A stretch of DNA of 64,000 nucleotides from Chloroflexota bacterium (lineage in GTDB: Bacteria > Chloroflexota > Dehalococcoidia > Lucifugimonadales > Lucifugimonadaceae): positions 32,305-96,304 of the forward strand of contig VXSB01000008.1 in assembly GCA_009838175.1 (NCBI GenBank), given 5' to 3'. The first letter of the stretch is position 1; the number at the start of each line of letters is the position of its first letter. Position numbers and translations under genes: made by a program. Under the pieces are notes generated by a model. It did no database searches. It was not told the DNA's origin and saw nothing but the letters and a program-made list of their open reading frames with translations. Below are positions 11,563 through 45,527 of this stretch, piece by piece.

Positions 11563-11704
11563 CGTGAAGATGCTTCCGACACGCCCTGAATCGCGATAAT
11601 TCGACGTGAACTCGCTACCCGTGAAATAGAAGTGGATTGTCCTAACGCGTAGCGTCCGAGACGTTTGAAATCTACGCCACAGGATTAGAGGCAACGGTTC
11701 GCGG

Positions 11705-12789: not shown

Positions 12790-12815
12790 TTCGGTAGCTT
12801 CCTGAATCCTCTCGT

Positions 12816-14195: not shown

Positions 14196-14226
14196 AGTGG
14201 CTTAGAGCGCTTGCAGCCTGCCAGCT

Positions 14227-16393: not shown

Positions 16394-16439
16394 GTGGTTA
16401 ATCCACGTTCATGGTATGCGCGCAAGCGACAACCACTCT

Positions 16440-23245: not shown

Positions 23246-24349
23246 ATGACTATCCGACAATTCAGGAGCGAAACTGTGACGACAGACAGTGACAACATCG
23301 TAATGGGCCTCATCGGTGCTGGCGGCAACACCCAACTCAGACATATTCCGGGGCTCCGAGCTCAACCGGGTGTCGAGATAAAAGGTCTGGTTAACCGATC
23401 ACGAGAATCTTCTGAGCGAGTCGCCGGCGAGTTTGAAATCCCAGAGGTCTACGAAGATTGGGACGAACTGCTCGAAGACGATGAAATCGACGCTGTATGT
23501 ATCGGTACATGGCCGTATATGCACGCACCTTTAGTCATTGAAACGCTCGAAGCTGATAAGCACGTCCTTTGCGAAGCCCGTATGGCGATGAATTCTAACG
23601 AGGCTCTACAGATGTTGGACGCGTCAAAACGCGCTCCTCATCTGGTGGCCCAGATAGTTCCAGCGCCTCACACACTCGAAATCGATCAGACGGTGATCAG
23701 GTTGATCTCCGAGGGCTATATCGGCGATCTGGTTAACGTAAAGCTCCATGTGGGAACCGGCAGCGATTTCCCAAACCCTGATCTGCCTTTGCACTGGCGG
23801 CACAACCGCGATCTATCAGGCAACAACATCATGACAATGGGTATCTGGTACGAAGCTATGATGCGTTGGTTCGGACCCGCCAAGACGGTGCAGGCCTTGG
23901 GGCAGACCGTCGTGAGTCACCGCTTGGATGAAGGCGGTCGCCGTCGTTCAACAACCATTCCCGACCACATCGACATTCTGATGTCCATGGAGTGCGGCGG
24001 AACAATGAACTACACCACTACGGCGGTGTCTGCTTTCTCTCGTGAACTCGATCTGTGGGTCCACGGTACCGACGGAGCGCTACGCGTCGAGAACGCAGAT
24101 CTTGACGAGCCGACGGGCGCAGTCTTTAAACTGAGTGGCGCACGCCGTGGAGATGATGGATTGAGCCAGATCGAGATACCGCCGGAAAACCGCGGCGCGT
24201 GGCGGGTCGAAGAGGAGTTCATCAATGCGATCAGAGGAATCGAGCCGATTACCCACACGAATTTCATCGATGGACTGAAGTACATGCAGTTCACCGACGC
24301 AGTGACGGAATCGGTCAAGACGGGCAACTTAGTGAGACTGCCGTTCTGA
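23246..24349 (+). CDS. Gfo/Idh/MocA family NAD(P)-dependent oxidoreductase
   Basis: 367 aa with the Rossmann start MGLIGAGGNTQLRHIPG, and VLCEARMA typical of the family. The exact start is uncertain. Confidence 0.75.
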   Translation: MTIRQFRSETVTTDSDNIVMGLIGAGGNTQLRHIPGLRAQPGVEIKGLVNRSRESSERVAGEFEIPEVYEDWDELLEDDEIDAVCIGTWPYMHAPLVIETLEADKHVLCEARMAMNSNEALQMLDASKRAPHLVAQIVPAPHTLEIDQTVIRLISEGYIGDLVNVKLHVGTGSDFPNPDLPLHWRHNRDLSGNNIMTMGIWYEAMMRWFGPAKTVQALGQTVVSHRLDEGGRRRSTTIPDHIDILMSMECGGTMNYTTTAVSAFSRELDLWVHGTDGALRVENADLDEPTGAVFKLSGARRGDDGLSQIEIPPENRGAWRVEEEFINAIRGIEPITHTNFIDGLKYMQFTDAVTESVKTGNLVRLPF

Positions 24350-24393
24350 AAACTCGCGCATTGTGACATTCCGACTCGAATGAGTCGAACGGA

Positions 24394-25464
24394 GTGTCCG
24401 AAAATCTCTGCATCATGAATGTAGAGATTTCTGATTTCCATCAACAGATAGCAAAATCAAGCCAGCGTTCGGCATTTGTAGACGTTGATAAACTGGCGTC
24501 TTTCATCGAGACTCCGTCAGTTGAGCCTGACTGTCGCGCTCTGCCGCTTAGTACGTTGTTTGCGGCTGATGTCAATGCCGAAGTACCGAACGCAGCATCG
24601 CGAAGCGGATCAGAACTGATTGGGGACAAACTCGGTACGGTATCGTTTTCTGGCCCCAAAGAAGATGCCGGCCATCAACTCAATAAGTTCCGATTGAAGG
24701 ACGTTCCTGAACGTGAGCGACCGCGGGAACGCATGCACGAACTCGGTCCCGCCGGCATAACGAATACCGAACTGCTGGCGATCATCCTGGGCTCCGGGAT
24801 TCAAGGCATCAACGTGAAAAACGTCGCAGACAATCTGCTGACTGAGTTTGATGGACTGCGCGGTCTAAGCCGCGTGAGCTCATTCAATATGCAGAACGTT
24901 GGAGGTATTGGCGATGTGAAAGCTGACGTGCTTACCGCGGCGTTCGAATTGGGCAGAAGAGCAGCCCAAGAAGAGATCGAAGCGCCGGGGAACGCATATG
25001 GGGGCCACTTGCCGAACGGCGAGACGATCGCATGGTCCGTCGCCAGACAGTTCACTACACGGCTGCGCGACAACGCCCAAGAGGAGATGTGGGTCGTGCT
25101 GCTAGACGTTAGGAATCGTTATCGTGGCAAGGCTCGCGTCTACATCGGTTGCTGCGACCAGCTGGTGGCCAAGACGGGCGAGATTCTGAGCCGTGTCGTC
25201 GAACGAAACCTTCCCCGTTATGCGCTAGTTCACAACCACCCATCAGGAAAAGGAGACCCAAGCGGAGCCGACATTTCATTTACTGAGCGATTGGTCAGAG
25301 CTGGGCAATTTCTAGACGTCGAACTAGTGGACCACGTCGTTCTCGGTGAAGACCTGCGAAGTTTCGTCAGCATGAGGCAGAGAAAGCTAGTCGACTTCAG
25401 TTGTTCGCCCATTTCGGGGCGACGGATCATGGACGATGACGATCTCTCTGCGAGGGACCACTAA
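24394..25464 (+). CDS. RadC-like JAB/MPN domain protein (UPF0758) with long N-terminal extension
   Basis: Contains ERPRERMHELGPAGITNTELLAIILGSG (HhH region) and LVHNHPSGKGDPSGADISFT (JAMM motif). About 100 extra N-terminal residues have no recognisable motif. The start codon is uncertain (GTG 24394 or ATG 24415). Confidence 0.75.
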   Translation: MSENLCIMNVEISDFHQQIAKSSQRSAFVDVDKLASFIETPSVEPDCRALPLSTLFAADVNAEVPNAASRSGSELIGDKLGTVSFSGPKEDAGHQLNKFRLKDVPERERPRERMHELGPAGITNTELLAIILGSGIQGINVKNVADNLLTEFDGLRGLSRVSSFNMQNVGGIGDVKADVLTAAFELGRRAAQEEIEAPGNAYGGHLPNGETIAWSVARQFTTRLRDNAQEEMWVVLLDVRNRYRGKARVYIGCCDQLVAKTGEILSRVVERNLPRYALVHNHPSGKGDPSGADISFTERLVRAGQFLDVELVDHVVLGEDLRSFVSMRQRKLVDFSCSPISGRRIMDDDDLSARDH

Positions 25465-25503
25465 ATTCGGGAACGAACATCGGTTGTAGGGCGAAGAAAA
25501 CCG

Positions 25504-25635
25504 CTAACCGCTGTCGCCTCCAATCGCATCACCGATCTTGGACACGAGCATGTAGACACCAATCGAGATCACGAGTGTGCCAATCGCGACGAGTAGCCCG
25601 GAGAAAGCTGTGATTAGCATTACGACATCCGACAT
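25504..25635 (-). CDS. 43-aa hydrophobic single-helix peptide (unannotated small ORF)
   Basis: Found by reading the minus strand: AGGAGG, then 6 nt, then ATG. Translation is MSDVVMLITAFSGLLVAIGTLVISIGVYMLVSKIGDAIGGDSG followed by a stop. It is below the ORF-track length cut-off. Confidence 0.45.
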   Translation of the reverse strand: MSDVVMLITAFSGLLVAIGTLVISIGVYMLVSKIGDAIGGDSG

Positions 25636-25829
25636 CTGATACCTCCTCATAGTATCGATTCAGGAAAATTACATCCCATTGATAGCAGATTATGCCATGA
25701 TTCTCAATAAATGTGCGTTTAGGAACCGAGAAACAGCCATCAAATCATGACGGCGGGAGTGGTACGAGGTGTAGCGAGCGACTCTGGTTCGGAATTGAAC
25801 CGAGGAACGGCAATTCAGGGTCGACTCGA

Positions 25830-26498
25830 CTATGCCGCCAGCCAATGGGATCTATTGATCCAAGCGAAGCGTGTGACTGGCCCACCGCTCGGTAATTTTC
25901 CGCCTTGAGATATGCCTGAAACTGGCAGACTGCCCCCTCGCAGGACATCCGCAATGGCGACGCTCGGACGATCTTCCGATCTGCTGCCGTATGCGCCGAA
26001 AATCAACGCTCCGTTGTCTGCAACAGCATGTTCGAGCAGATGAAGAGCCAGCTGCGGCAGGTATTCGATCGGCACGAGATCCCAAATGGCGTAAACCCAC
26101 CGGAATCTTCGTGGCGGCAACCATCCCCACGCATTAGCTACCCAAAAGTGATCCACTTGGTCACGAAATCGCCTCATAGCCTCATGTATCAGGCGCGGAT
26201 TTAGATCCACGCCGTACGGCGTCAATTCGATTCCGCTCTTGTAGGCCCAATCAACAACTGATTCAAGCAAGTGTCCATTTGCGCAACCGAGATCCAAACA
26301 CTCCCCGTCCCCATCTATTGCATCGAGTAACGGAGATCGCTCGATGCGCCATCGCTCGGGTCCCCCGCTGAATCCAGACTGCTTAATCGGGTCGCGGTGG
26401 CGCAGATAGGCAGTTTCCAATACGCGGATCGAATCCATATGTGATTCAGGGAGTCGCGACAGTCGTGCGCAGGCGGGATCAAGAAGCTGAGTGTCCAT
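25830..26498 (-). CDS. Class I SAM-dependent methyltransferase
   Basis: Contains the LDLGCANGHL motif I and a downstream acidic loop. I prefer the internal ATG at 26498 (MDTQLLD...) because the 26636 start would overlap the divergent pxpA. Confidence 0.65.
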   Translation of the reverse strand: MDTQLLDPACARLSRLPESHMDSIRVLETAYLRHRDPIKQSGFSGGPERWRIERSPLLDAIDGDGECLDLGCANGHLLESVVDWAYKSGIELTPYGVDLNPRLIHEAMRRFRDQVDHFWVANAWGWLPPRRFRWVYAIWDLVPIEYLPQLALHLLEHAVADNGALIFGAYGSRSEDRPSVAIADVLRGGSLPVSGISQGGKLPSGGPVTRFAWINRSHWLAA

Positions 26499-26598
26499 CA
26501 GTGTTACGATACTAATCGCGATCGAATCGCTTAAAACCGTCGATTGAAATCCCCGCGCGATTCGAAAAGAAACGCAACACACATCGGGAGCACATGCC

Positions 26599-27372
26599 AT
26601 GAGCGCAACGGTGGCGATTGATCTAAACGCCGACATCGGAGAGTCTTACGCCTCCTACAAGATGGGTATGGATGAAGAAATCGTCAAACACATCACCTCT
26701 GCAAACATTGCTTGCGGATTCCACGCCGGAGATCCCGATTGGATGGCACAAACGGTCGCCCTAGCTGAGGAACACGGCGTTAGCATCGGCGCACACCCGG
26801 CATACCCTGACCTTGCAGGTTTCGGACGACGCGATATGGCATTGACCCCCGACGAGGTCGCTCACGCCATCACCTACCAAGTTGGTGCCCTCACCGCCTT
26901 CACCAAAGGCAAGAAACTCGCACACGTCAAACCGCATGGTGCACTTTACAATCGCGCTGTCGGCGACAAGGACATCGCCGCAGCGATTGTAAAAGCGATC
27001 CGCAAGATTGACGACGAGTTGATACACGTGGTTCTTGCAAACTCCGTATGGGAAGACGTGGCGCGCAACGAAAATGTGCTTGTAGCACGCGAGTGTTACG
27101 CTGACCGAGCGGTTACGCCAGAAGGCACTCTTATGCCTCGTTCCCAACCCGGGTCCGTCATACACGATGTCAATGAGGTTACATCTCGTTCGCTTCGCCT
27201 TGCATCCGAAGGGAAAGTGACAGCGTCGGATGGCAACGATATCGACTTTGCGGCAGATACTATCTGTCTGCATGGGGATACCCCGGGTGCTGTTGAGATG
27301 GCGGCATCGGTCAAGTCAACGTTCGAATCAAGCGGTATCCAAGTCAAACCGTTGTCATCAATCCTCGGATAA
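26599..27372 (+). CDS. pxpA: 5-oxoprolinase subunit A (LamB/YcsF family)
   Basis: 257 aa. Contains DLNADIGESY, ANIACGFHAGDP and KPHGALYN. Confidence 0.85.
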   Translation: MSATVAIDLNADIGESYASYKMGMDEEIVKHITSANIACGFHAGDPDWMAQTVALAEEHGVSIGAHPAYPDLAGFGRRDMALTPDEVAHAITYQVGALTAFTKGKKLAHVKPHGALYNRAVGDKDIAAAIVKAIRKIDDELIHVVLANSVWEDVARNENVLVARECYADRAVTPEGTLMPRSQPGSVIHDVNEVTSRSLRLASEGKVTASDGNDIDFAADTICLHGDTPGAVEMAASVKSTFESSGIQVKPLSSILG

Positions 27373-27402
27373 CGACGAGCCGCAGATCAGATTTCGACAG
27401 AA

Positions 27403-28113
27403 TTGACTTTGTCTGAATACCCTCGCATCCTTCCGGCCAACGATTCGTCAATACTGATCGAGTTCGGCGACTCCATTGATTACTCGATCAACGCGCAGGT
27501 GTACGCTCTGCAAACCGAAATCGAGAATTCTAACTTCGTCGATGCGGTCATAGAGACCATTCCGTCGTACAGATCCTTACTGGTTGAGTATGACGTCGGA
27601 ACGCTAAATTACGGGGATATCCGAGACCAAGTGTCTGTCTTGGTTAAAAGAACGACTGTGATGGAAGCAGCGATCTCCGACCAAGCGTCGGAACTGCATC
27701 AGATTCCCGTAGCTTACGGCGGTGAGTTGGGGCCCGACTTAGAGACAGTCGCTGAGCATGCCGGTCTAGACGTCGAAGAGGTGATCGCGATCCACTCGGG
27801 AACCGACTACCACGTCTTCATGCTGGGTTTCGCTCCTGGATTTCCGTATTTAGGCGGCATGGACGAGCGAATTGCTTGCCCGCGCCTATCGACGCCGCGT
27901 ACGCGCGTACCGGCCGGCTCCGTGGGCATCGCAGAATCGCAAACCGGGGTTTATCCGAACGAGAGCCCCGGGGGATGGCAACTAATCGGACGCACGCCGA
28001 TCGCGCTTTTCGACGTGGATGCCGATCCGCCAGCTGCTATGTTGCCGGGGACTCAGGTCAACTTCGTACCGATATCGCAACAAGAGTACGAAGATAGGGC
28101 CCGGTCCGAGTAA
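27403..28113 (+). CDS. pxpB: 5-oxoprolinase subunit B / KipI family (former allophanate hydrolase subunit 1)
   Basis: 236 aa with a TTG start. Contains ILIEFGD, YHVFMLGFAPGFPYLGG and GSVGIAESQTGVYP. Confidence 0.8.
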   Translation: MTLSEYPRILPANDSSILIEFGDSIDYSINAQVYALQTEIENSNFVDAVIETIPSYRSLLVEYDVGTLNYGDIRDQVSVLVKRTTVMEAAISDQASELHQIPVAYGGELGPDLETVAEHAGLDVEEVIAIHSGTDYHVFMLGFAPGFPYLGGMDERIACPRLSTPRTRVPAGSVGIAESQTGVYPNESPGGWQLIGRTPIALFDVDADPPAAMLPGTQVNFVPISQQEYEDRARSE

Positions 28114-28118
28114 GCGAC

Positions 28119-29252
28119 ATGCTGAGCTCGAAATCAAACGTAGAGGTTCTAACGGCGGGTAGTCGTTTGACTATTCAGGATCTGGGCCGTCGCGGCAGTC
28201 AACGGTTCGGTGTCTCCGTTAGTGGAGTTCTTGATCTACAAGCTGCGGTTCTAGCAAATCGACTCGTAGGCAATCCAGCATCATCGGCTGTGTTCGAGTC
28301 GCTTTTTGGCGGTATGTCGCTTGTCTTTTATGCAGATACCAAGATAGCTATTACTGGAGCTGAGGTCACTGTCGACGTTGACGGACATACCCTACCTATT
28401 TGGGAAACACTGATTGCGCCTGCAAACTCGGTATTGAATATCTCGGTGCCGAGTGCAGGGTTGTACGCCTACGTGGCTGTTGCCGGCGGATTGGATATTC
28501 CCTCAGTATTGGGATCGCGTTCGACTCATGCCGCGTCAGGGATAGGCGGTCTTGATGGGCGTGCATTGGCCTCCGGAGATATTCTGCCTATTGGTGATGA
28601 AACGGACGGGGATGTGAGACCCTCTGCGGGCACGACCTGTCCAGACGTGATGGTGCCAGCGTGTCGTGAAACTGACCAACGAGTTCGAGTCACCGCCGGA
28701 CCTCAGTTCGATGCGTTCGATGATGGTGCGAAATCGAGTTTTTTGGCATCCAACTTCACGATTAGCAATTTGACCGACCGCCAGGGTGCAAGGCTGGATG
28801 GTGCCGAAATCCCGGCTATTGGCGGTAAACACGACATCGTTTCGGATCCGGCGTATATGGGGGCCGTACAAGTACCCGCCGATGGCAAGCCAATCATCCT
28901 CCTAGCCGATAGACAACCGACCGGTGGATACGCCAAGATCGCTTCGGTAATTTCCGCGAACCTTCCCAGCGTCGTACAAAAGGCTCCGGGATCAGACATT
29001 GCATTTGAACTGATCGAAGTCGAACAGGCGCAGGAATTGGCGCGTGAATTTAACAACATCATCCTTGATGCCCCACTCCAACAGCCTTCACACACGTACT
29101 CAACGCACTTCGAGATAGCCGGTGAAACCTACAATGTTCATTTAGTACGGCCCACGAATGTGAGCAACGGTGACGAGATCGTCTACGTAGATTTCGGCGA
29201 CAAAACCGAGATCGTGGCCACCGTCGAGGTGCTAGAGGAATCAAGCCACTAA
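28119..29252 (+). CDS. pxpC: 5-oxoprolinase subunit C / KipA family (former allophanate hydrolase subunit 2) with ~60-aa C-terminal extension
   Basis: 377 aa. Contains LTIQDLGRRG, GVSVSGVLD, PADGKPIILLADRQPTGGYAKI, and an extra tail ...THFEIAGETYNVHLV... Confidence 0.8.
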   Translation: MLSSKSNVEVLTAGSRLTIQDLGRRGSQRFGVSVSGVLDLQAAVLANRLVGNPASSAVFESLFGGMSLVFYADTKIAITGAEVTVDVDGHTLPIWETLIAPANSVLNISVPSAGLYAYVAVAGGLDIPSVLGSRSTHAASGIGGLDGRALASGDILPIGDETDGDVRPSAGTTCPDVMVPACRETDQRVRVTAGPQFDAFDDGAKSSFLASNFTISNLTDRQGARLDGAEIPAIGGKHDIVSDPAYMGAVQVPADGKPIILLADRQPTGGYAKIASVISANLPSVVQKAPGSDIAFELIEVEQAQELAREFNNIILDAPLQQPSHTYSTHFEIAGETYNVHLVRPTNVSNGDEIVYVDFGDKTEIVATVEVLEESSH

Positions 29253-29272
29253 ACGTTTACTCGAGAACGAAG

Positions 29273-29668
29273 TTGGATTTTGGACCGATATACGACGGCC
29301 TGCAGGTCAGTGGCATTGGCATGGGCATGACCTCGGTCGTGCTCATCATTTTGGCGGTCTCAGTCCGATTGATGGCGTTTACAGACGCGTATCTGCGAAA
29401 GAGAGAAGCAACCGCCAAAGAAGCATCAGAGAACGAAACTTCAGATCAACCCGCTTCCGAGCAAATTCTGGTCGACGAGTCTTCAAGCGGACCTGCTCGG
29501 GCCGCAGCAATTGCTGTCGCGATCGCGTTGTCGAGGCGATCTCAAGAGATCCATGTCAGCGGCGAAACGCGAATTGCGGGTAACGCGACGAACTCAACAT
29601 ACGATGCGTGGTTGACCGAAGGTCGTGCCAGACAGCGTGCGAAACAGGGCAGTAGAGGATGGCGATGA
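29273..29668 (+). CDS. OadG-like small membrane subunit of a Na+-translocating decarboxylase
   Basis: 131 aa. A single N-terminal TM helix (GLQVSGIGMGMTSVVLIILAVSVRLMAF) is followed by a charged linker and an AAAIAVAIAL helix, which is the pattern of OadG/MmdD/GcdD. It overlaps the next gene by 10 nt. Confidence 0.6.
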   Translation: MDFGPIYDGLQVSGIGMGMTSVVLIILAVSVRLMAFTDAYLRKREATAKEASENETSDQPASEQILVDESSSGPARAAAIAVAIALSRRSQEIHVSGETRIAGNATNSTYDAWLTEGRARQRAKQGSRGWR

Positions 29669-30111
29669 CCGGTAGGTACCGAATCACCGTTGATGGCGTC
29701 ACATACGAAGTCGAAGTTGGCGATGTCTCCGCGTCACCTGTGACAGTAGTCGTCGATGGCGTCGAATTTGAGATCGAACTACCCGACGATCCTCAATCAC
29801 AACCGACCGTTCAACGACCGCAGCGTTCGGTAACGCGCCCAACACCAAGACGATCCGCTGATCGGGCTCGACCTTCTGCGGTAGCGGCTGCCGACAGCCA
29901 AGACGTAGTTCGCGCGCCGATGCCCGGACGAATCATCAGGGTCAATGTATCGGTCGGTGACAGCGTCCAACGAGGTCAATCGATAGTCGTGCTCGAGTCG
30001 ATGAAGATGGAAAATACGATTGCGGCACCGCGAGATGGGGTTGTATCGCAGGTCCATATCGCGGCTGACGAGTCGGTGCAGCACGGCCAATCGTTGGTGG
30101 AGCTCGAATAA
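29659..30111 (+). CDS. Biotin carboxyl carrier protein (biotinyl/lipoyl domain; MmdC/GcdC/1.3S-like)
   Basis: 150 aa. The N-terminus YRITVDGVTYEVEV is followed by a Pro/Arg-rich linker and a C-terminal biotinyl domain with VLESMKMEN. Confidence 0.85.
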   Translation: MAMTGRYRITVDGVTYEVEVGDVSASPVTVVVDGVEFEIELPDDPQSQPTVQRPQRSVTRPTPRRSADRARPSAVAAADSQDVVRAPMPGRIIRVNVSVGDSVQRGQSIVVLESMKMENTIAAPRDGVVSQVHIAADESVQHGQSLVELE

Positions 30112-30114
30112 ACG

Positions 30115-31320
30115 ATGTCCGGCGAAGGAGTGCTTGATCAGATATTCGCCGGCTTTGAGGCCATCGGCGACGACCCGCGCATCGTAGCGATGTGGGTGAT
30201 TGCCGCTGCTTTGCTCTACGTCGGTATCGCGAAACGCAAAGAACCGCTGCTTCTCGTTCCCATTTCGATGGGGATCCTATTCGCCAATCTTCCGCTTGGA
30301 GAATTCATCCGCGAGGGCGGTGGAGGGGAGCCTACAGGTATTCTACGGACATTTCAGACGGTGGGATTGGAATCGGATATCTTCCCGTTGCTGATCTTCT
30401 TGGGAGTAGGTACTGCGACCGATTTTTCGCCGATGCTTTCCAATCCCAAGACTTTATTGCTGGGTGCTGGAGCACAGGCAGGAGTGTTTTTCGCTCTGGT
30501 TGGCGCACTGATCCTAGGCGCACTTGGTTGGTTCGATTTCGGACTACTCGAAGCTGCTTCGATCGGGATCATCGGAGGTGCAGACGGCCCGACGACGATA
30601 TTCATAGCGACTCGGATGCGGGAGTTAGGAGAGTCACTGCCGCATATTGAAGTGCGCGACATTGTCGGTGCAACCGCGGTAGCGGCATACTCCTACATGG
30701 CATTAGTGCCAATAATTCAACCGCCGTTGATAAAGCTGCTAACGACCAAGAGCGAACGCCAAATCCGCATGGAGTATTCGAGCGAACCGGTTTCACGAAG
30801 ATCGCTCATTCTGTTTCCCATCATCACGACTATCGTAGTGAGTGTATTAGTGCCGTCGGCGTCTCCGCTCATCGGGATGCTCATGCTGGGCAATCTGATC
30901 AAAGTTTCCGGCGTGGTTCCACGACTCGCTGACGTGTCCGAGAATGCATTGATGAACGCCACGATTGTGATTTTGGGTTTGTCGGTCGGTGCCACAATGC
31001 CTGGATCGATCTTCCTGCAACCTGAAACGCTGGGCATATTCGTACTTGGTCTGTTCGCATTCGCAACCGCCACAATCACTGGCATCCTGTTGGCGAAACT
31101 GATGAATTTGGTTTCTAAGAGCAAAGTAAATCCGATGATCGGCGCCGCGGGTGTCTCCGCAGTGCCAATGGCGGCGCGGGTCGTCCAAGACATGGGTCAA
31201 GAGGAGGATCCTGAGAACTTCCTTCTTATGCACGCCATGGGGCCGAACGTCGCTGGTGTGATCGGAACTGCGACTGTCGCGGGCGTCCTGATTGCGGTTG
31301 TGCCATCCTTGATCGGTTGA
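30115..31320 (+). CDS. Na+-translocating decarboxylase beta subunit (OadB/MmdB/GcdB family)
   Basis: 401-aa polytopic protein. Contains GIAKRKEPLLLVPISMGILFANLP, IGIIGGADGPT and AAGVSAVPMAARV, which are typical of OAD_beta as I recall. The start lies 3 nt after the BCCP stop. Confidence 0.8.
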   Translation: MSGEGVLDQIFAGFEAIGDDPRIVAMWVIAAALLYVGIAKRKEPLLLVPISMGILFANLPLGEFIREGGGGEPTGILRTFQTVGLESDIFPLLIFLGVGTATDFSPMLSNPKTLLLGAGAQAGVFFALVGALILGALGWFDFGLLEAASIGIIGGADGPTTIFIATRMRELGESLPHIEVRDIVGATAVAAYSYMALVPIIQPPLIKLLTTKSERQIRMEYSSEPVSRRSLILFPIITTIVVSVLVPSASPLIGMLMLGNLIKVSGVVPRLADVSENALMNATIVILGLSVGATMPGSIFLQPETLGIFVLGLFAFATATITGILLAKLMNLVSKSKVNPMIGAAGVSAVPMAARVVQDMGQEEDPENFLLMHAMGPNVAGVIGTATVAGVLIAVVPSLIG

Positions 31321-31410
31321 TCCTAGGATGCTTCACATTGCCGTTGTGTGTAACATCAATCTCTGTAATCCCATGTGCGGATAGTTCCGCCGATTCCCGG
31401 AGTATCTCCA

Positions 31411-32322
31411 ATGCCTGACCTCACTATGCGGGGTGTATACCCGATACTGTCGACGCCGTTCGATAAACGTGGCAACATCGTGTTCGACGACCTAGAAAAT
31501 CAAGTCGAATGGATCATCAACCAAGGCGTCCACGGCGTCGGAATAGCTATGGCGAGCGAGGTTTTCAAACTTACCGAGAGCGAACGCGACGCAGTCTTGA
31601 GATCCGTCGTTGACACGGCTAAGGGCCGTGTAAAGGTCGTCATGAACACTGGTATGGAAGGCACAGACGCGACGATCGCGTATTCGCAACGAGCAGAAGA
31701 ATTGGGCGCTGACGCGTTGATGATCAGGCCGACTACTTACACACCCACCGTTGCATCGGAACACATCGAATACTTCGTTCGGATTGCCGAATCTGTGGGT
31801 ATACCGATCTTCTTGCAAGACCAAAGCACCGCACCAGTCCCGCCGGGAATGGCGGTAGCATGTGCAAAGCGCCACGAAAACCTTTGCTACATCAAGGTCG
31901 AGACACCGCCGACGATTCCTAGGATGTCAGAGGCACAAAGTCTGATCGGCGATGATGCTGATCTGATTCTGTTTGGCGGCATGGGTGGAGCATTCCTGCT
32001 CGAAGAACTGCGAAGAGGTTCCGTCGGCACGATGCCGGGATCAACCTTGCCTGACAAGTTCGTGGAGGTCTGGGATTTGTGGGAAGCTGGAGACGAGGCA
32101 GGAGCCCTTGACGCTTTCGATCAGTACGCGTCGATTATCCGCTCGTTGGCGCAGGGACAAGGCCTAGCCAACTGGATCTACAAGCACATCATGTGGCGTC
32201 GAGGCATCTTTAGCAAAGAAGGCATCTATGCACGTGGCCCGTCGCTCAGGCCTGACGATGAGCACCTGAAGGAAATCGACGCTCTGTTGGATCGGGTTAG
32301 CTTGCTCGAGGTATCTGGTTAG
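31411..32322 (+). CDS. Dihydrodipicolinate synthase/N-acetylneuraminate lyase family class I aldolase
   Basis: GVYPILSTPF...VHGVGIAMASEVFKLTESER...YIKVE resembles DapA-family enzymes. I prefer the ATG at 31411 within the track ORF 31375..32322. Confidence 0.7.
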   Translation: MPDLTMRGVYPILSTPFDKRGNIVFDDLENQVEWIINQGVHGVGIAMASEVFKLTESERDAVLRSVVDTAKGRVKVVMNTGMEGTDATIAYSQRAEELGADALMIRPTTYTPTVASEHIEYFVRIAESVGIPIFLQDQSTAPVPPGMAVACAKRHENLCYIKVETPPTIPRMSEAQSLIGDDADLILFGGMGGAFLLEELRRGSVGTMPGSTLPDKFVEVWDLWEAGDEAGALDAFDQYASIIRSLAQGQGLANWIYKHIMWRRGIFSKEGIYARGPSLRPDDEHLKEIDALLDRVSLLEVSG

Positions 32323-32495
32323 TCACTCAGGGTTGTTTTTTGGAACATGACGGTCACTCCAAAAAGCCGCTCGACGACGAATTCGGTTCTCGAAATCGCA
32401 TTGGAATGCCCTGTTGAGGTCATTGACTGCAATTGTCGGCGCGCCAGTGCGTCGAATTTAACCAAAACTAAAACTTCCTATCTCCGGGAAACACG

Positions 32496-33341
32496 ATGGA
32501 TTTAATTCTCGGAACCAACACAGACCTCGCGGTCTGGCAGCTTGTCCTGATGAGTGCGATCTCACTCGCTGTAGGGCTGTCCGGTGGTGTCGTCGGGATC
32601 GCGTTGGGAGTCATAAGACTGCCGATGCTGACCCTTTTCGGAGTAGACCCCTTGATCGCCGCTGGCACCAATCTCATGATCAGCGTGATGGGTTCAACAA
32701 TCGGCACACTGGAAGCGTTTTTCGAAAAGCGCGTGGTACCAACTGTCGTGTTCGCCATGGGCGGCCCGGCAATCATCGGCGCATTCGTTGGTGGCTACTT
32801 CGCCGACGTAGTACCGATCTGGATACTTCTCGCAGTCGTGGCCCTGCTGATGGGTTGGTCGGCTCTTTTCCTGATCTTCTGGTCGCTCAGGATCATGCGT
32901 ATACGCCGCCGCTACCCCACCGCGCGCACTCGCCGCGCGATGACAGGCGGTGGTAACGGACAGCTCGAACTCGACGTGAAACAAGCCAGCAGGGAAGGTG
33001 TCGCCGGGTTTGTGATCGGTCTGATCGGCGGTGCGGTGGGATTGGTTTTGGGAGTGTTGCGAATGCCCGCGTTGCTTGCTATGAAGATGGACCCGCATAA
33101 GGCCGCAGGAACGAATTTGGCTATCACGGTGCTAGTCGGAATCTCGGGATTCGTTGGACATCTTCTGAAAGGGGGTGTTGACTGGCACTTGATCGCGATC
33201 GTTGGCATACCTGGTGTATTGGGCATGTACGCCGGAACAAGGTTGGCGAATCGATTTGACGCCGCCGGTCTCCGGCTAGTCGTGGGCATCGTAGTCCTAA
33301 TCGTCGCCCCGGCGGTTCTTTTAAGCGCGTTTCGCAACTAA
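32496..33341 (+). CDS. TauE/SafE (DUF81) family anion exporter/permease
   Basis: 281 aa. Two internally repeated halves have Gly-rich TM helices (GGVVGIALGVIRLPML / GGAVGLVLGVLRMPAL) and AAGTNL motifs. Confidence 0.7.
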   Translation: MDLILGTNTDLAVWQLVLMSAISLAVGLSGGVVGIALGVIRLPMLTLFGVDPLIAAGTNLMISVMGSTIGTLEAFFEKRVVPTVVFAMGGPAIIGAFVGGYFADVVPIWILLAVVALLMGWSALFLIFWSLRIMRIRRRYPTARTRRAMTGGGNGQLELDVKQASREGVAGFVIGLIGGAVGLVLGVLRMPALLAMKMDPHKAAGTNLAITVLVGISGFVGHLLKGGVDWHLIAIVGIPGVLGMYAGTRLANRFDAAGLRLVVGIVVLIVAPAVLLSAFRN

Positions 33342-33377
33342 ACTAACGGCAAACAATCCAACCGGATTCACAGATCG

Positions 33378-34277
33378 ATGTACAGAAACATGTACGAAGC
33401 GATGGAGGTCGAACGACCGTTACAGGTCGCAGGCGTTATCAACGCGTACGCCGCAATCCAAGCAGAAAGAGCAGGATTCAACGCCATCTATCTGTCAGGT
33501 AGCGGCGTTGCGACCGCCTCTTATGGTTTGCCGGATCTGGGGATGACTGGTTTGACCGATGTGCTAGCGGATGTTGAACGCATCAAGTCAGTAAGTGAAT
33601 TGCCATTGTTGGTGGATTGCGACACGGGGTGGGGCGCGGCGCTTTCGATTGCCCGAACCGTTCGAGAGATGGAACGCGCTGGAGTTGCTGCGATCCACAT
33701 TGAGGATCAGGTTCAAGAGAAGCGATGCGGGCACCTGCCTGGCAAAATGGTCGTCGAGATTGAAGAGATGTGCGACCGGATCAAGGCCGCGGTTGATGCG
33801 CGGATCGACAATCAGTTCATGATCATGGCCCGCACTGATGCGCTCGCCACGGATGGGTTGATGGGAACTTTGGACCGTTGTGCTGCCTACGTCGAAGCTG
33901 GCGCTGACGCGATTTTCGCTGAGGCGGTCACTGAATTGGGGCAGTACCAAGAATTCGCTACTCGGATCGGTGTGCCGATTCTTGCAAATCTAACGGAATT
34001 CGGCAGAACGCCGCAGTTCACTGTCGACGAGTTGCGATCAGCCGATGTAGCCATGGCGCTGTACCCTCTGTCTGCCTTCCGTGCAATGAACCGAGTGGCA
34101 GAAGCGGTGTACTCTGAAATCAAGAATGCAGGGACACAGCGCGATGTTGTGCATTTGATGCAGACTCGTGAAGAACTTTACGAGAACATCGGTTACCACG
34201 AATACGAGCAGAAGATAAACGACCTGTTCTTAGTTCGTACACAATCTGGGCGCAGGCAATCGGAACATACGAAATGA
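33378..34277 (+). CDS. prpB: Methylisocitrate lyase (isocitrate lyase/PEP mutase family)
   Basis: 299 aa. Contains LVDCDTGWG, AAIHIEDQVQEKRCGHLPGK and MARTDA. It overlaps prpC by 4 nt. Confidence 0.85.
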   Translation: MYRNMYEAMEVERPLQVAGVINAYAAIQAERAGFNAIYLSGSGVATASYGLPDLGMTGLTDVLADVERIKSVSELPLLVDCDTGWGAALSIARTVREMERAGVAAIHIEDQVQEKRCGHLPGKMVVEIEEMCDRIKAAVDARIDNQFMIMARTDALATDGLMGTLDRCAAYVEAGADAIFAEAVTELGQYQEFATRIGVPILANLTEFGRTPQFTVDELRSADVAMALYPLSAFRAMNRVAEAVYSEIKNAGTQRDVVHLMQTREELYENIGYHEYEQKINDLFLVRTQSGRRQSEHTK

Positions 34278-35395: not shown

Positions 35396-36849
35396 CGAAC
35401 CGCTACGACGACGTCATTGCCGAGATTGCTGAATACGCCTGCCGTCAAGGGAGGGTTGGCACTGACGAGGCTTTTAGCACCGCGCGAATAGCGCTCATGG
35501 ATTCCATCGGTTGTGCCTTCTTAGCACTTGGTTTTCCGGCATGCCGCGATTTCATCACCACCGAAGATTCGGTAGGCAACTACAGCGGTGGCACACCGAT
35601 ACCCGGGACCTGCCACGTCAAATCTGCGCCCCAAGCCGCGTTCGACATCACGACGGCAATTCGATGGCTCGACTTCAACGACACATGGCTTGCCAAGGAA
35701 TGGGGTCATCCCTCCGACAATTTCGGAGGGATTCTCGCGTCGACAGACTGCATCTCCAGATCTCGTAGAAAAGCTGACGGCCATACGTTTCTTGTGCGTG
35801 ATGTTCTTGAGATGGCGATACGATCCTACGAAATCCAAGGCGTTTTAGCCCTTGACAACGCATTCAACCGGGTCGGGATCGATCACGTGTTGCTCGTCAA
35901 GGTAGCTTCGGCTGCGGTTGCGGCAGCGGTCATGTCGGACAGCAATGAAGAAATCGTGGCATCCGCAGTTTCGCATGCGTGGCTCGATGCAACTTTGCGA
36001 ACCTACCGGCATGCCCCCAATACCAACGCCCGTAAATCTTGGGCCGCTGGAGATGCGACATCTCGCGGCGTTTCAATGGCCACGTTCGCATTGCGGGGTA
36101 TGGACGGCTGCTACTCAGCTCTAACTGCACCAAACTACGGTTTTCAAGATGTGTGGTTCGAAGGGCAGGATGTCACGCTGGGCAGGCCCCTTGAGTCGTA
36201 CGTGATGGAAAACGTGCTGTTCAAAGTCAAGTACCCGGCGGAATTCCATGGACAGACCGCGGTTGAAGCCGGTGTCGCGTTGCACCCGTTGATAGCACAT
36301 CGATTAGATGAGATCCGATCTATTGAAATCAAAACCCAAGAACCTGCGGTACGCATCATCGACAAAAAAGGTGAACTGAACAATCCAGCAGATCGCGATC
36401 ACTGCATCCAATACATGACAGCGGTGGCGCTATTAAAGGGCGATGTCACATCGGACGACTACGAGGACGACGCGTCGAATGATCCTCGGATTGATGCCTT
36501 GCGCGAAAAGATGGTTATCTCCGAACGACCCGAGTACACAGTCGAGTATCTCGATCCGGAAAAGCGTTCAATCGCGAATGCTGTGAAGGTGAATTTCGAT
36601 GATGGAAGCAGCACTGACGAAGTGGAGGTCCGTTTTCCGATCGGGCACCGAACCCGACGATCCGAAGCAATTCCGTTACTTTTCGACAAGTTCCACGCAA
36701 ACCTTGAAGCCACGTTTGGCGATTCCGAATTCACTCGTGGAGTCGGTGCCAAGTTCCGAAATTTGGAAGATTTAGACGAGGTATCTGTTACCGATTTCAT
36801 GGACGCGTTGAAGATGGACGCTCGTGCGGAAAGGACTGCTAAGAGTTGA
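35392..36849 (+). CDS. prpD: 2-methylcitrate dehydratase (MmgE/PrpD family)
   Basis: The ATG at 35392 (MTNRYDDVIAEIAEY...) forms an ATGA overlap with the prpC stop. Length and motifs are those of the PrpD family. The track ORF starting at 35227 is an out-of-context extension. Confidence 0.85.
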   Translation: MTNRYDDVIAEIAEYACRQGRVGTDEAFSTARIALMDSIGCAFLALGFPACRDFITTEDSVGNYSGGTPIPGTCHVKSAPQAAFDITTAIRWLDFNDTWLAKEWGHPSDNFGGILASTDCISRSRRKADGHTFLVRDVLEMAIRSYEIQGVLALDNAFNRVGIDHVLLVKVASAAVAAAVMSDSNEEIVASAVSHAWLDATLRTYRHAPNTNARKSWAAGDATSRGVSMATFALRGMDGCYSALTAPNYGFQDVWFEGQDVTLGRPLESYVMENVLFKVKYPAEFHGQTAVEAGVALHPLIAHRLDEIRSIEIKTQEPAVRIIDKKGELNNPADRDHCIQYMTAVALLKGDVTSDDYEDDASNDPRIDALREKMVISERPEYTVEYLDPEKRSIANAVKVNFDDGSSTDEVEVRFPIGHRTRRSEAIPLLFDKFHANLEATFGDSEFTRGVGAKFRNLEDLDEVSVTDFMDALKMDARAERTAKS

Positions 36850-40498: not shown

Positions 40499-41375
40499 AT
40501 TTGCTCCTCGCGATTTGGACGGGTTCCGGTTTACCGCCTGGCAAACCAGGTTCGATGACCAGTTTGAACATCAACGCACCCAACGGTGCGCCGACGAGTG
40601 GGCCAAGAATGTAGACCCAGAATCCGCCTTCTGGTCCTGGGATAGCGATATCTCCCCAGCCCGCGAGCCACGAAACGATCCGCGGTCCGAAATCCCGCGC
40701 TGGGTTCCATCCCCCCTGCGTTATCGGCGCGAACAAACTGATCAGTGCGGCAACGGTAAACCCGATGAAGAACGGCACCATTCCGTTCGTCGGGATACCA
40801 GCGTTGCGTCGTTCGGTCAGCGCAAATATGACGAAAGCGAGGATTGCAGTCCCGAACGCCTCAACGGCGAACGCGTGCAGAGGAGATACGGAGAATATAG
40901 CCGAATCAAACATGCCAGGGTTAGGAAAATACTCGCCGAACGCCATCGCAGACCTTTGGCTACCCGCTTCACCCCGAACGATGTCGTTTTCTGTTTCAAA
41001 TCGGTCGATGAACGGGTTGAATAGGATCAAGACCACCACACCCGCAATGACGGCCCCGATCAACTGTGCAGCCCAATATGCGAACAGGCGGTTCAACGGG
41101 AACTGATCGCGTCGGAAGATTGCGAATGACAGACTCACCGCTGGGTTGAGATGAGCACCGGATACCGCGCCGCTGACGTATATTGCCAATGTGACACCGA
41201 ATCCCCACACGGCTGCGACTTGCCATAAACCAACCTGCGCACCGGTGAAAACTGCGGCAGCGACTGAACCTATTCCGAACAATACCAGAATGAAAGTACC
41301 CAATATCTCCGCCAAGCAAGCGCTCAACAGCGGGGTTGATTCCAAATTGGACGCGCCATGTCGCAATAAGCTCAT
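40491..41375 (-). CDS. MIP-family aquaglyceroporin (AqpS/GlpF-like, candidate arsenite channel)
   Basis: 294 aa with two NPA boxes (HLNPAVS and WNPARD). The start forms an ATGA overlap with the hemB stop. Confidence 0.8.
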   Translation of the reverse strand: MSLLRHGASNLESTPLLSACLAEILGTFILVLFGIGSVAAAVFTGAQVGLWQVAAVWGFGVTLAIYVSGAVSGAHLNPAVSLSFAIFRRDQFPLNRLFAYWAAQLIGAVIAGVVVLILFNPFIDRFETENDIVRGEAGSQRSAMAFGEYFPNPGMFDSAIFSVSPLHAFAVEAFGTAILAFVIFALTERRNAGIPTNGMVPFFIGFTVAALISLFAPITQGGWNPARDFGPRIVSWLAGWGDIAIPGPEGGFWVYILGPLVGAPLGALMFKLVIEPGLPGGKPEPVQIARSKYE

Positions 41376-44843: not shown

Positions 44844-44854
44844 GTCTAGGCATT

Positions 44855-45526: not shown

Positions 45527-45527
45527 T

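Follow-up and report, generated by a model that had tools for sequence, protein, structure and literature searches.

Canonical PxpABC uses ATP directly and does not need biotin (PMC13274462), and the characterised enzymes of the OadB family, which comprise four types, are all Na+ exporters driven by decarboxylation (PMC8085960). A PxpC/PxpB homologue from M. smegmatis, MSMEG_0435-0436, was found by cryo-EM to hold BCCP domains (PDB 9YX5), with the bound biotin “positioned to participate in a carboxylation reaction”; it serves as an inhibitor or sequestering factor that lowers mycobacterial acyl-CoA carboxylase activity, and carboxylase activity of its own was undetected (PMC13012033). KipI and KipA were originally described as regulators as well (cited in PMC13012033). 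Among the relatives of these proteins, pxpBC of Bacillales occurs with accB-accC and a D-Glu cyclase. The gene order in Domibacillus is pxpB-pxpC-BCCP-biotin carboxylase-D-Glu cyclase-IclR-pxpA-NRAMP, and PxpBC in this 5-oxoproline/glutamate context must, to judge from its neighbours, consume carboxybiotin. In NC10, a fused CT_C_D-CT_A_B-Biotin_lipoyl protein is followed by a dehydrogenase of the Glu/Leu/Phe/Val (glutamate-type) family. The relatives in Bacillales and NC10, on their gene content, point to chemistry that uses up carboxybiotin.

In this study, we analysed a window of 64,000 nucleotides from a Chloroflexota genome and its related loci, which suggest that in marine SAR202 bacteria the 5-oxoprolinase-like PxpABC, a biotin carrier and an OadB-type sodium pump seem to form one membrane machine. 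Our literature search found no paper on this combination.

Six-gene operon and its protein families

Six open reading frames on the + strand occupy positions 26599-31320 of the window, with spacings of +30, +5, +20, -10 and +3 nt in order, so that the gene layout given in the earlier note was reproduced; terminator-like sites were looked for in the intergenic gaps and none was seen. Its family assignments held in Pfam, with agreement from NCBIfam, for all six proteins. The first gene, pxpA (26599..27372, 257 aa), encodes a LamB/YcsF-family hydrolase (LamB_YcsF, 320.7 bits), the proposed lactam ring-opening subunit, and passes the NCBIfam model NF003814 “PxpA” with 349 bits (cutoff 226). It is followed by pxpB (27403..28113, 236 aa), which carries the KipI-type carboxyltransferase subdomains C and D (CT_C_D, 261 bits), passes TIGR00370 PxpB (208 bits, cutoff 145.55) and partially matches the urea carboxylase model TIGR02712 at positions 971-1052. 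PxpA and PxpB thereby score as genuine 5-oxoprolinase subunits. The third gene (28119..29252, 377 aa) is a long form of pxpC with the KipA-type subdomains A and B (CT_A_B, 273.8 bits, residues 30-297) and a C-terminal extension. It fails the NCBIfam PxpC equivalog (214 bits, cutoff 500) and passes only the domain-level TIGR00724; among solved structures it is closest to E. coli YbgK (5DUD), M. smegmatis MSMEG_0435 (3MML/9YX5) and K. lactis urea carboxylase (3VA7), and no alignment with these runs past residue 308.

The remaining three genes encode relatives of Na+-pump subunits. An OadG-like protein (29273..29668, 131 aa) has an N-terminal membrane helix, GIGMGMTSVVLIILAV, an AAAIAVAIAL helix and a C-terminal W..GRARQ motif; it matches OAD_gamma with 40.3 bits (cutoff 27) and narrowly passes TIGR01195 (37.3 against 36.05). 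The biotin carboxyl carrier (29659..30111, 150 aa; Biotin_lipoyl, 73 bits, residues 83-149) consists of an N-terminal double hairpin (YRITVDGVTYEVEV...VTVVVDGVEFEIEL), a Pro/Ala-rich linker and the ESMKMEN-bearing biotinyl domain. The translations show all three features claimed before, namely the membrane helix, ESMKMEN and the AAAIAVAIAL helix. In NCBIfam the carrier is closest to MmdC-type carriers and to the last 120-130 residues of OadA/PycB (profile positions 467-595), and in the PDB to the P. horikoshii “methylmalonyl-CoA decarboxylase gamma chain” 2D5D. The carrier's true start is likely the second ATG at 29665, which turns the -10 spacing into a classic 4-nt ATGA overlap (29665-29668) with the preceding gene. 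The last gene, oadB (30115..31320, 401 aa), encodes the Na+-translocating carboxybiotin decarboxylase (beta) subunit (OAD_beta, 463 bits; TIGR01109, 457 bits, a pass) and matches Salmonella OadB 6IVA/6IWW with an E value of 1.4e-103. The equivalents of Salmonella D203, Y229, N373, G377, S382, R389 and N412 are all identical, and by this alignment OadB keeps every residue required for Na+-coupled catalysis. The biotinylation motif and the OadB motifs are intact.

As the earlier note had remarked, the operon encodes no canonical carboxyltransferase. Carboxyl_trans, HMGL-like/PYC_OADA, ACCA and biotin-carboxylase domains were absent from all 34 window ORFs scanned with Pfam, which included the six operon genes, the two genes next to them and another 20 ORFs of at least 315 aa, the scan leaving aside twelve window ORFs of 231-311 aa. 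Precomputed Pfam tables likewise gave no canonical carboxyltransferase among the called genes nearby in eleven relatives.

The PxpC C-terminal module and the OadG-like protein

The extension of PxpC contains a predicted double beta-hairpin module (residues about 321-377, positions 29079..29249, + strand), which we propose to be a docking (“association”) module. In the AlphaFold2 model of PxpC (mean pLDDT 87), the tail forms four strands (326-333, 336-343, 352-358 and 364-370) with pLDDT of about 68-75. Past the conserved F296, the tail measures 69-93 aa in every pump-linked PxpC, compared with about 30 aa in the ordinary protein. When tails were classed as long (65-95 aa) or short (40 aa or less), oadB was present at 37 of the 42 genome loci with a long tail and at none of the 30 with a short one. 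The five exceptions are two loci at contig ends (L033, L036), one disrupted by a repeat (L031) and two whose gamma-like protein has no membrane helix (L058, L085).

The tail profile aligns with the profile of the carrier N-terminus over 38 columns (hhalign 95.6%, E 1.2e-8), and the real pair scored 37.5 in a control where column shuffles gave 9.2 +/- 2.1 (maximum 16.3) and the reversed profile 11.3. In an unbiased search of 1.84 billion proteins, the tail profile retrieved long PxpCs and low-complexity repeat proteins; when ten matches were checked with Pfam, the only recognisable domain proteins apart from long PxpCs were three biotin carriers. The carrier N-terminus itself aligns with OadA/PycB profile positions of about 467-510, immediately ahead of their biotinyl domain. 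On these profile comparisons, the module specific to pump-linked PxpC is homologous to the carrier N-terminus, and PxpC would have acquired such a double beta-hairpin module.

In the gamma-like protein, the membrane helix is present or absent together with oadB, and the C-terminal half is retained alongside PxpC and the carrier. The hydrophobic membrane helix occurs at each of the 48 oadB loci. The three long-tail loci without oadB at the locus (L058, L085, L091) encode a gamma-like protein that has lost only this helix and keeps the W..GR.R motif and the AAIA helix, the latter once or twice; the carrier is still there, and in L091 its gene overlaps that of the soluble gamma-like protein by 4 nt. 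The long-tail clade has a bootstrap of 100%, and the oadB-less loci nest within the oadB clade (nesting nodes 66-77%), which suggests that the module is still functional without the pump. Such pump-less function would be easy if any biotin carboxylase supplies carboxybiotin, but hard if carboxybiotin is the product.

Conservation and neighbourhood

A survey of the neighbourhoods proposed earlier, for pxpBC together with oadB, found the whole block (pxpABC, gamma, carrier, oadB) at 36 of 80 species-level representative loci, all in Chloroflexota and including the cultured “Ca. Lucifugimonas marina”. Since it recurs so often while PxpC identity falls to 41%, the arrangement lies far beyond chance, although the co-occurrence counts are phylogenetically non-independent because all carriers of the block come from a single phylum in which synteny is broadly conserved. 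Among the pump-linked loci, identity ranges from 61 to 98% for PxpA, which is co-conserved in every locus, and from 58 to 100% for OadB. The gene junctions are conserved as tight, with a median carrier-to-oadB gap of 5 nt (40 loci).

Directly after oadB lies a DHDPS-family (class I aldolase/dehydratase-like) gene (31375..32322, + strand; DHDPS, 85.7 bits), whose product has the L-2-keto-3-deoxyarabonate dehydratase 3FKK as its closest solved relative (E 1.2e-29). It holds this place in 35 of the 36 complete loci, directly follows the carrier gene in L085 and L091, which have no oadB, and is tandemly duplicated in L040 and L095; this constant neighbour may be part of the same pathway. A TauE/SafE-family permease (32496..33341, + strand; Pfam TauE on orthologues), found in 34 of the 36 and still linked in the rearranged, oadB-less L091, is a candidate transporter of substrate or product. 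Methylcitrate genes begin 2,057 nt past oadB, as had been noted, and 31 of the 36 loci have prpBCD 2 kb downstream. The suggested link from methylmalonyl-CoA to these genes is weak, because they are missing from the neighbourhood in sublineage L095, whereas the DHDPS-family gene and the permease are constant neighbours.

Proposed enzyme, pump direction and alternative readings

We consider it quite probable, from the combined comparative evidence, that the six genes of this single operon encode a single membrane-anchored biotin enzyme, in which PxpB and long PxpC would form a urea-carboxylase-type carboxyltransferase acting on the biotin of the 150-aa carrier. The OadG-like protein would be a bridge, its C-terminal half (the AAAIAVAIAL helix and W..GRARQ tail) holding PxpC and the carrier, and its N-terminal membrane helix resting on OadB, which would interconvert carboxybiotin and CO2 coupled to Na+ movement. 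The earlier proposal of one uncharacterised membrane-bound biotin enzyme, with PxpB/PxpC in the place of the alpha subunit, is thus supported by the PxpC module, the helix co-variation, the tight junctions and the cryo-EM homologue (PMC13012033). Its conservative counterpart, two merely adjacent units, would combine an ordinary ATP-dependent 5-oxoprolinase with an Mmd-like pump that has its alpha subunit encoded elsewhere and supplies the methylcitrate genes with propionyl-CoA. PxpA and PxpB do pass the 5-oxoprolinase models, prpBCD is usually near, and RadC, GFO/IDH/MocA and prpBCD are likewise syntenic across the clade, so that adjacency alone is weak evidence. We nevertheless regard this as very improbable: PxpC fails its equivalog, its long tail, a homologue of the carrier N-terminus, is confined to loci with this carrier type, the carrier and the gamma-like C-terminal half remain with pxpABC when oadB is absent, the junctions are tight, L095 lacks prpBCD nearby, and the scanned window ORFs yielded no alpha subunit. 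Hardly more probable is a regulatory role, in which long PxpBC would bind to the pump's carrier and sequester its biotin, with a true MmdA/OadA/GcdA-type carboxyltransferase encoded elsewhere. A distant alpha gene has a precedent in Acidaminococcus, where gcdA is located apart from gcdDCB. Both the sequestering M. smegmatis homologue and the first description of KipI/KipA fit such a role (PMC13012033). On the other hand, PxpA is conserved in every locus, the PxpABC/gamma-like/carrier set survives at loci with no pump to regulate, translational coupling and a module devoted to docking speak for a stoichiometric subunit, and no canonical transferase is conserved near the operon in eleven relatives or present among the scanned window ORFs.

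Two readings of the single complex differ in the direction of the pump. The earlier note took it that carboxybiotin decarboxylation drives Na+ export, which was an assumption; PxpBC would then move a carboxyl group from a donor (an N-carboxy-amide, e.g., an allophanate-like or N-carboxy-lactam compound) to biotin, OadB would decarboxylate carboxybiotin and export Na+, and PxpA would make the donor or remove the product. All four characterised OadB-type systems run so (PMC8085960). Known pumps share the gamma-carrier-beta order and the catalytic residues that are intact in this OadB, everything that speaks for a single complex holds here as well, and decarboxylation energy would presumably be worth conserving for an energy-limited deep-sea heterotroph. 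However, the urea-carboxylase-type transferase fold carboxylates amide or guanidine nitrogens, and we know of no plausible, abundant carboxyl donor for it; glutamate cyclisation is, by our own estimate, too weakly exergonic for charging biotin. Carboxybiotin would lack a sink in the pump-less L058, L085 and L091, the relatives combine PxpBC with a biotin carboxylase, that is, a supply of carboxybiotin, and PxpA is left without a defined role. We hold a new Na+-pumping decarboxylase, the strongest of the alternatives, to be unlikely, and the opposite direction fits the biotin-carboxylase relatives and the pump-less derivatives better.

Our leading, still tentative, reading is a lactam hydrolase resembling urea amidolyase, which would open a 5-oxoproline-like lactam as that enzyme opens urea. 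Carboxybiotin on PxpBC would carboxylate the lactam nitrogen, PxpA would hydrolyse the activated ring, CO2 would leave the N-carboxy amino acid spontaneously, and OadB in reverse, powered by Na+ influx, would remake carboxybiotin, thus standing in for the ATP-dependent biotin carboxylase that adjoins pxpBC in Bacillales. To our knowledge, there is no demonstrated case of a lactam being hydrolysed after activation by carboxylation. Reverse operation of OadB-type enzymes is documented in vitro and has been proposed in vivo for the glutaconyl-CoA decarboxylase of Syntrophus; our literature search for either gave no confirmation. We estimate the energetics to be tight, with two Na+ in and one H+ out set against about +20 kJ/mol for carboxybiotin. 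The net reaction would be lactam plus water to amino acid, with the sodium gradient in place of the ATP that canonical PxpABC uses directly. If this is true, lactam rings would be opened in these bacteria on a sodium gradient instead of ATP, by a previously undescribed combination of proteins.

The pxp-oad operon and its protein families

The operon (26599-31320, forward strand) comprises pxpA, pxpB, a long pxpC, an OadG-like gamma gene, a biotin carrier gene and oadB. Translation of the reading frames in the window confirmed the strand, lengths and spacings that the earlier note had given for all six genes, with one refinement: the −10 nt spacing between the gamma-like and carrier genes holds for the genes as called, but the carrier more likely starts at its second ATG, which gives a 4-nt ATGA overlap (29665-29668). 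No terminator-like site was found by a terminator scan in the operon's intergenic gaps, and Rfam returned no match in 24000-34000, hence none in the pxpA leader. A weak methyltransferase-like reading frame (25830-26636, reverse strand) diverges from pxpA and, as called, overlaps its start by 38 nt; in relatives this gene is shorter (200-254 aa) and is separated from pxpA by about 40-190 nt.

Profile-HMM searches against Pfam placed the six proteins above the curated cutoffs of LamB_YcsF, CT_C_D, CT_A_B, OAD_gamma, Biotin_lipoyl and OAD_beta, as expected from the first reading. Against NCBIfam, PxpA exceeds the subfamily model NF003814 (349 bits, cutoff 226) and PxpB the equivalog TIGR00370 (208 bits, cutoff 145.55); PxpC falls below the PxpC equivalog NF045499 (214 bits, cutoff 500) and is recognised at the domain level only, by TIGR00724. 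It is 377 aa long, including an 81-aa tail after F296, compared with the usual 310-335 aa or so. The carboxyltransferase (CT) subdomains PF02626 and PF02682 are both present, split over two proteins, with the carrier as a separate protein; the urea carboxylase model TIGR02712 gives partial matches to PxpC (174 bits) and to PxpB (46 bits).

On the pump side, the gamma-like protein consists of a membrane helix and an Ala-rich helix, and scores above PF04277 (40.3 bits, cutoff 27) and barely above TIGR01195 (37.3 bits, cutoff 36.05). The carrier (PF00364, 73 bits) bears the ESMKMEN motif and finds its best matches among MmdC-type carriers, while also resembling the final 120-130 residues of OadA/PycB in NCBIfam. 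OadB scores 463 bits with PF03977 and 457 bits with TIGR01109, and matches the solved Salmonella OadB (6IVA) with an E-value of 1.4e-103. In the Salmonella protein, mutagenesis and structural work have identified D203, Y229, N373, G377, S382, R389 and N412 as functional residues for Na+ and carboxybiotin; the equivalents in the window OadB are all identical.

The lack of a canonical carboxyltransferase, already pointed out in the earlier note, extends beyond the operon to all 34 reading frames of the window that were scanned with Pfam, among them the six operon genes, their two direct neighbours and 20 further frames of at least 315 aa (twelve frames of 231-311 aa lay outside the scan). An ATP-grasp biotin carboxylase (Biotin_carb_N/CPSase_L_D2) was likewise absent from these 34 frames. 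In eleven related loci, the called genes within 7-8 kb included no HMGL-like plus PYC_OADA protein, no Carboxyl_trans protein (PF01039) and no MadC/D.

The PxpC tail and the gamma-like protein

Measured in every locus as the residues after the invariant F296, the tail of PxpC has about 30 aa in ordinary pxpABC loci and 69-93 aa in all loci with an Mmd-type carrier or oadB; it reaches about 140-150 aa in NC10 genomes, whose PxpC is fused to the carrier. Among the genome loci collected, oadB accompanies 37 of the 42 long-tail genes and none of the 30 short-tail genes. Of the five long-tail loci without oadB, L033 and L036 lie at contig ends and L031 is disrupted by repeats; the others are L058 and L085. 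In L031, tandem repeats (about 9100-10100) follow the long-tail pxpC in place of the gamma-like, carrier and oadB genes, probably reflecting a rearrangement or an assembly artefact.

In the AlphaFold2 model of PxpC, the tail forms a helix and then four strands (pLDDT about 68-75, against a mean of 87 for the whole protein). No solved structure aligns past PxpC residue 308, and a Foldseek search with the whole model matched the YbgK/AHS2/urea-carboxylase core only, with no match to the tail. Single tail sequences found no match in NCBIfam, and only comparison at the profile level was informative: the tail-hairpin profile matches that of the carrier N-terminus ('YRITVDGxxYEVEV...VTVxVDGxxYEVE') with 95.6% probability and an E-value of 1.2e-8. 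The real comparison scored 37.5; 100 column shuffles gave 9.2 ± 2.1 (maximum 16.3) and the reversed profile 11.3. Furthermore, a scan of 1.84 billion proteins with the tail profile returned long PxpCs and low-complexity repeat proteins; apart from these, just three of the ten matches checked with Pfam had a recognisable domain, all three being biotin carriers, and in two of them the match fell in the N-terminal region. The carrier N-terminus in turn aligns to OadA/PycB directly upstream of the biotinyl domain, the region of OadA that contains the 'association domain' binding OadG.

The gamma-like protein varies together with the pump. In all 48 loci with oadB it begins with a hydrophobic helix, mostly with a GMG motif, which is followed by an 'AAVIAVALAL' helix and, in many loci, by a C-terminal W..GRxRQ motif. 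Three long-tail loci lacking oadB, namely L058 (groundwater Chloroflexi), L085 (Thermoflexus) and L091, encode a gamma-like protein that has lost the membrane helix and kept the AAIA helix and the W..GR.R motif; the AAIA helix is duplicated in L085 and has a looser second copy in L091, where the gamma-like and carrier genes overlap by 4 nt. As the membrane helix is lost with oadB and the rest is kept, the C-terminal half of the protein appears to be tied to PxpC and the carrier, its membrane half to OadB. In 40 loci, the median gap between the carrier gene and oadB is 5 nt.

These observations, all comparative and drawn from one phylum, make it quite probable that the six proteins form a single complex, in which PxpBC would serve as the carboxyltransferase, and the gamma-like protein would bind OadB through its membrane helix and receive the hairpins of PxpC and of the carrier on its C-terminal helix. 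A precedent from experiment also speaks for one machine: in cryo-EM, the PxpC/PxpB homologues of M. smegmatis hold BCCP domains (PMC13012033). Canonical PxpABC is ATP-dependent and biotin-independent (PMC13274462); the dedicated carrier and the putative docking module argue against biotin independence of the present PxpABC.

Conservation and gene neighbourhood in Chloroflexota

The closest relatives of these proteins are found in metagenome-assembled genomes (MAGs) of Dehalococcoidia and other Chloroflexota. One genome per species was scanned with an alignment of long PxpCs, and the returned loci were searched by tblastn with all proteins of the window. This survey, a check proposed with the first reading, recovered the order pxpA-pxpB-pxpC-(gamma)-carrier-oadB in 36 of 80 loci, at identities ranging from 94% down to 41% for PxpC and from 100% down to 58% for OadB; the carriers, which include the cultured 'Ca. 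Lucifugimonas marina' JH545 (L070), belong to one phylum with broadly conserved synteny, and the counts are phylogenetically non-independent. The operon is also present in two complete SAR202 genomes, OZ220682.1, whose PxpC is 94% identical to that of the window, and NZ_CP046146.1. A second phylum seemed to be represented by a 'Gemmatimonadetes' MAG contig of 4.9 kb (L092; GCA_016872455.1, VGZS01000018.1), which was rejected: it shares the RadC-x-pxpABC-gamma synteny of Chloroflexota and is probably a mis-binned fragment from that phylum, and we therefore claim the spread for Chloroflexota only.

Downstream of the 36 operons, a DHDPS-family gene is present in 35, a TauE-family permease gene in 34 and prpB/prpC in 31. 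The DHDPS-family gene (31375-32322, forward strand) lies 3' of oadB, or of the carrier gene where oadB is missing, and the closest solved relative of its product is L-2-keto-3-deoxyarabonate dehydratase (3FKK, E-value 1.2e-29). It is tandemly duplicated in one sublineage (L040, 11387-13271; L095, 11346-13222); in L095 the methylcitrate genes are non-adjacent, both DHDPS paralogues and the TauE gene being kept. The DHDPS-family protein may process the product of the complex. It was also considered as a hidden 'alpha' subunit for oxaloacetate, an idea that we rejected because Schiff-base decarboxylation frees CO2 directly and needs no biotin.

The TauE/SafE-family permease gene (32496-33341, forward strand) and a gene for a three-domain TPP enzyme (36846-38531, forward strand) are linked to the pxp-carrier block. 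Both remain so despite an inversion in L091, and in L095 a TPP gene lies upstream on the opposite strand. This linkage might reflect sulfonate metabolism or a transporter of this pathway. Elsewhere in the window, genes for a CcmF-like protein, a pair of NrfD-like membrane proteins and a molybdopterin oxidoreductase follow one another on the reverse strand (8900-18788) and resemble a respiratory module of the Alternative Complex III type, and HemB, fused CobA/HemD, HemC and a NirDL/AhbAB-like siroheme decarboxylase (41372-46604, reverse strand) suggest a siroheme-dependent (alternative) haem pathway.

Relation to known biotin enzymes and direction of the pump

With the Oad/Mmd/Gcd/Mad pumps the system shares an OAD_beta protein with all key residues, a single-helix anchor of the OAD_gamma type whose C-terminal helix is Ala-rich, a small MKM carrier with the Mmd/Gcd-type N-terminal double hairpin (its best PDB match is 2D5D, the P. 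horikoshii 'methylmalonyl-CoA decarboxylase gamma chain'), and the gene order gamma-carrier-beta with overlapping or near-abutting genes. In contrast to these pumps, the operon encodes PxpB, a long PxpC and a LamB/YcsF hydrolase in place of an HMGL-like/PYC_OADA or Carboxyl_trans alpha subunit, the docking module would sit on PxpC, and the pump may work in reverse; it is found in aerobic marine Chloroflexota, not in fermenting anaerobes like the known pumps. With the PxpABC systems (E. coli YbgJKL, B. subtilis PxpA/KipI/KipA, C. glutamicum Cg1139-1141) it has three families in identical order in common, and the modelled PxpC core is predicted to fold like YbgK (TM about 0.9 on the target). It differs from them in the extra module of about 50-60 aa on PxpC, in the biotin carrier and Na+ pump of the operon, and in having a TauE-family permease in place of the NRAMP-type transporter PxpT.

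Urea amidolyase (urea carboxylase plus allophanate hydrolase) and guanidine carboxylase also combine an A/B + C/D CT with a biotin carrier, the urea-carboxylase structures 3VA7 and 5I8I are among the structural matches of PxpC, and the logic proposed here, to carboxylate an amide nitrogen and then hydrolyse, is that of this family. On the other hand, the CT is here split in two, OadB stands where an ATP-grasp biotin carboxylase would be, and the hydrolase is of the LamB/YcsF rather than the amidase-signature type. The system resembles a hybrid: beta, gamma and carrier are those of the Oad/Mmd/Gcd pumps, PxpA, PxpB and the PxpC core those of PxpABC, and the CT fold and logic those of urea amidolyase. 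It is a strict member of none, since it lacks the pump alpha subunit, fails the PxpC equivalog while carrying an extra module, and lacks the biotin carboxylase of urea carboxylase.

Evidence on the direction of the pump comes from relatives in which PxpBC is tied genetically to a biotin carrier in a glutamate/5-oxoproline context. Domibacillus robiginosus (L074, 7225-14490) has the order pxpB-pxpC-BCCP-biotin carboxylase-D-glutamate cyclase (PF07286)-IclR-pxpA-NRAMP, a gene set from which PxpBC there must use ATP-made carboxybiotin, in a 5-oxoproline/glutamate context; the cluster is apparently an uncharacterised ATP- and biotin-dependent pxp variant, possibly acting on 5-oxo-D-proline. Used as a tblastn query on 90 loci, its biotin carboxylase matched in L074 only. 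NC10/Methylomirabilota MAGs (L057, 7233-10554; also L049 and L052) encode a 684-aa CT_C_D + CT_A_B + Biotin_lipoyl fusion, resembling urea carboxylase minus its biotin carboxylase, with pxpA and an ABC-transporter ATPase gene upstream and a Glu/Leu/Phe/Val-family dehydrogenase gene downstream, by context a glutamate dehydrogenase. Both groups are without gamma and beta subunits, with carboxybiotin coming from an ATP-dependent biotin carboxylase in Bacillales, whose PxpC tail has 34 aa and no hairpins, and from an unlinked one in NC10.

In a bootstrapped neighbour-joining tree of concatenated PxpA, PxpB and PxpC, the long-tail clade is monophyletic (100%) and the pump-less loci are nested within it (support 66-77%), which indicates that oadB and the membrane helix were secondarily lost. 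The module thus persists without the pump. This is easy to see if carboxybiotin is consumed, because any biotin carboxylase could supply it, and hard to understand if carboxybiotin is its product. The comparative evidence therefore leans towards the reverse direction. Of the three pump-less loci, one comes from groundwater and one from Thermoflexus, a hot-spring genus, and the pump-bearing loci are largely marine by sample names, a split that weakly fits dependence on external Na+.

The overall chemistry, by analogy with urea amidolyase, could plausibly be carboxylation of a lactam followed by hydrolysis, though we put this at somewhat below even chances. The lactam nitrogen of a 5-oxoproline-like substrate would be carboxylated by carboxybiotin, the activated ring would be hydrolysed by PxpA, CO2 would be lost from the N-carboxy amino acid, and carboxybiotin would be regenerated from CO2 by OadB using Na+ influx. 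By our own estimate, the energetics in a marine cell are feasible but tight. The DHDPS-family neighbour, closest to 3FKK, and the TauE-type permease suggest, speculatively, a substituted 5-oxoproline or related cyclic acid rather than plain pyroglutamate. Oad-type pumps are reportedly reversible in vitro, and in Syntrophus the reversal of glutaconyl-CoA decarboxylase in vivo has reportedly been proposed; our literature search confirmed neither.

That the OadB-type pump physiologically runs backwards, the Na+-motive force paying for lactam opening through N-carboxylation by PxpBC and hydrolysis by PxpA, is our tentative preference among several readings. The same complex might instead run forward as a new decarboxylase pump, the direction assumed in the earlier note, whose idea of one enzyme gains from the tail, the co-variation of the gamma-like protein and the conserved junctions; this is rather unlikely, with the subunits shared with known pumps on one side and the persistence of the module in pump-less loci on the other. 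Glutamate cyclisation as a driver of such a forward pump was rejected on energetics, again by our own estimate.

PxpBC might also regulate or sequester the carrier while the true alpha subunit is encoded elsewhere, a role with a precedent in mycobacteria. The M. smegmatis PxpC/PxpB homologues MSMEG_0435-0436 (PDB 9YX5), whose group ranks second among the relatives of the PxpC core by sequence and by structure, form a heterodimer that in cryo-EM binds BCCP domains and biotin, with biotin 'positioned to participate in a carboxylation reaction'; the pair sits on the long-chain acyl-CoA carboxylase and behaves as an inhibitor (PMC13012033). The mycobacterial pair is, in contrast to the present system, without docking tail, dedicated carrier and pump, and we regard such a role here as improbable. 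Slightly more improbable still are two unrelated adjacent units, the conservative alternative of the earlier note, which is contradicted by the evidence from the PxpC tail and the gamma-like protein.

To our knowledge, the transferases of all known Na+-translocating biotin decarboxylases are HMGL-like or have the crotonase fold, and the list of classes has not changed for decades. Reviews recognise four substrate classes only (PMC8085960). The literature searched contained no paper linking pxp, LamB/YcsF, 5-oxoprolinase or SAR202 to oadB or oxaloacetate decarboxylase, and the SAR202 cultivation paper names none of these genes. The link to biotin is already implicit in annotation, where NCBI names the long PxpC 'biotin-dependent carboxyltransferase'. 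The annotation implies neither the connection to the pump, nor the putative docking module, nor the way in which the gamma-like protein co-varies.

With a urea-carboxylase-type transferase as its fifth architecture, the family of Na+-translocating decarboxylases would grow, and the PxpBC 'biotin-dependent carboxyltransferase family', so far labelled 5-oxoprolinase subunits, kinase regulators or BCCP binders, would gain a concrete biotin partner. Since 'Ca. Lucifugimonas marina' JH545 carries the operon and is in culture, the question can be tested directly. If the pump is reversed, amide hydrolysis that requires energy would proceed without ATP, which is relevant to the attack of oligotrophic SAR202 on refractory dissolved organic nitrogen. 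If this holds, an OadB-type pump would for the first time be known to carboxylate biotin as its physiological task, and lactam hydrolysis would have a third mode of energy coupling, besides direct phosphorylation by ATP and carboxybiotin from an ATP-dependent carboxylase; the mode would be fixed across the abundant deep-ocean SAR202 clade, with possible consequences for how refractory amide nitrogen is turned over.
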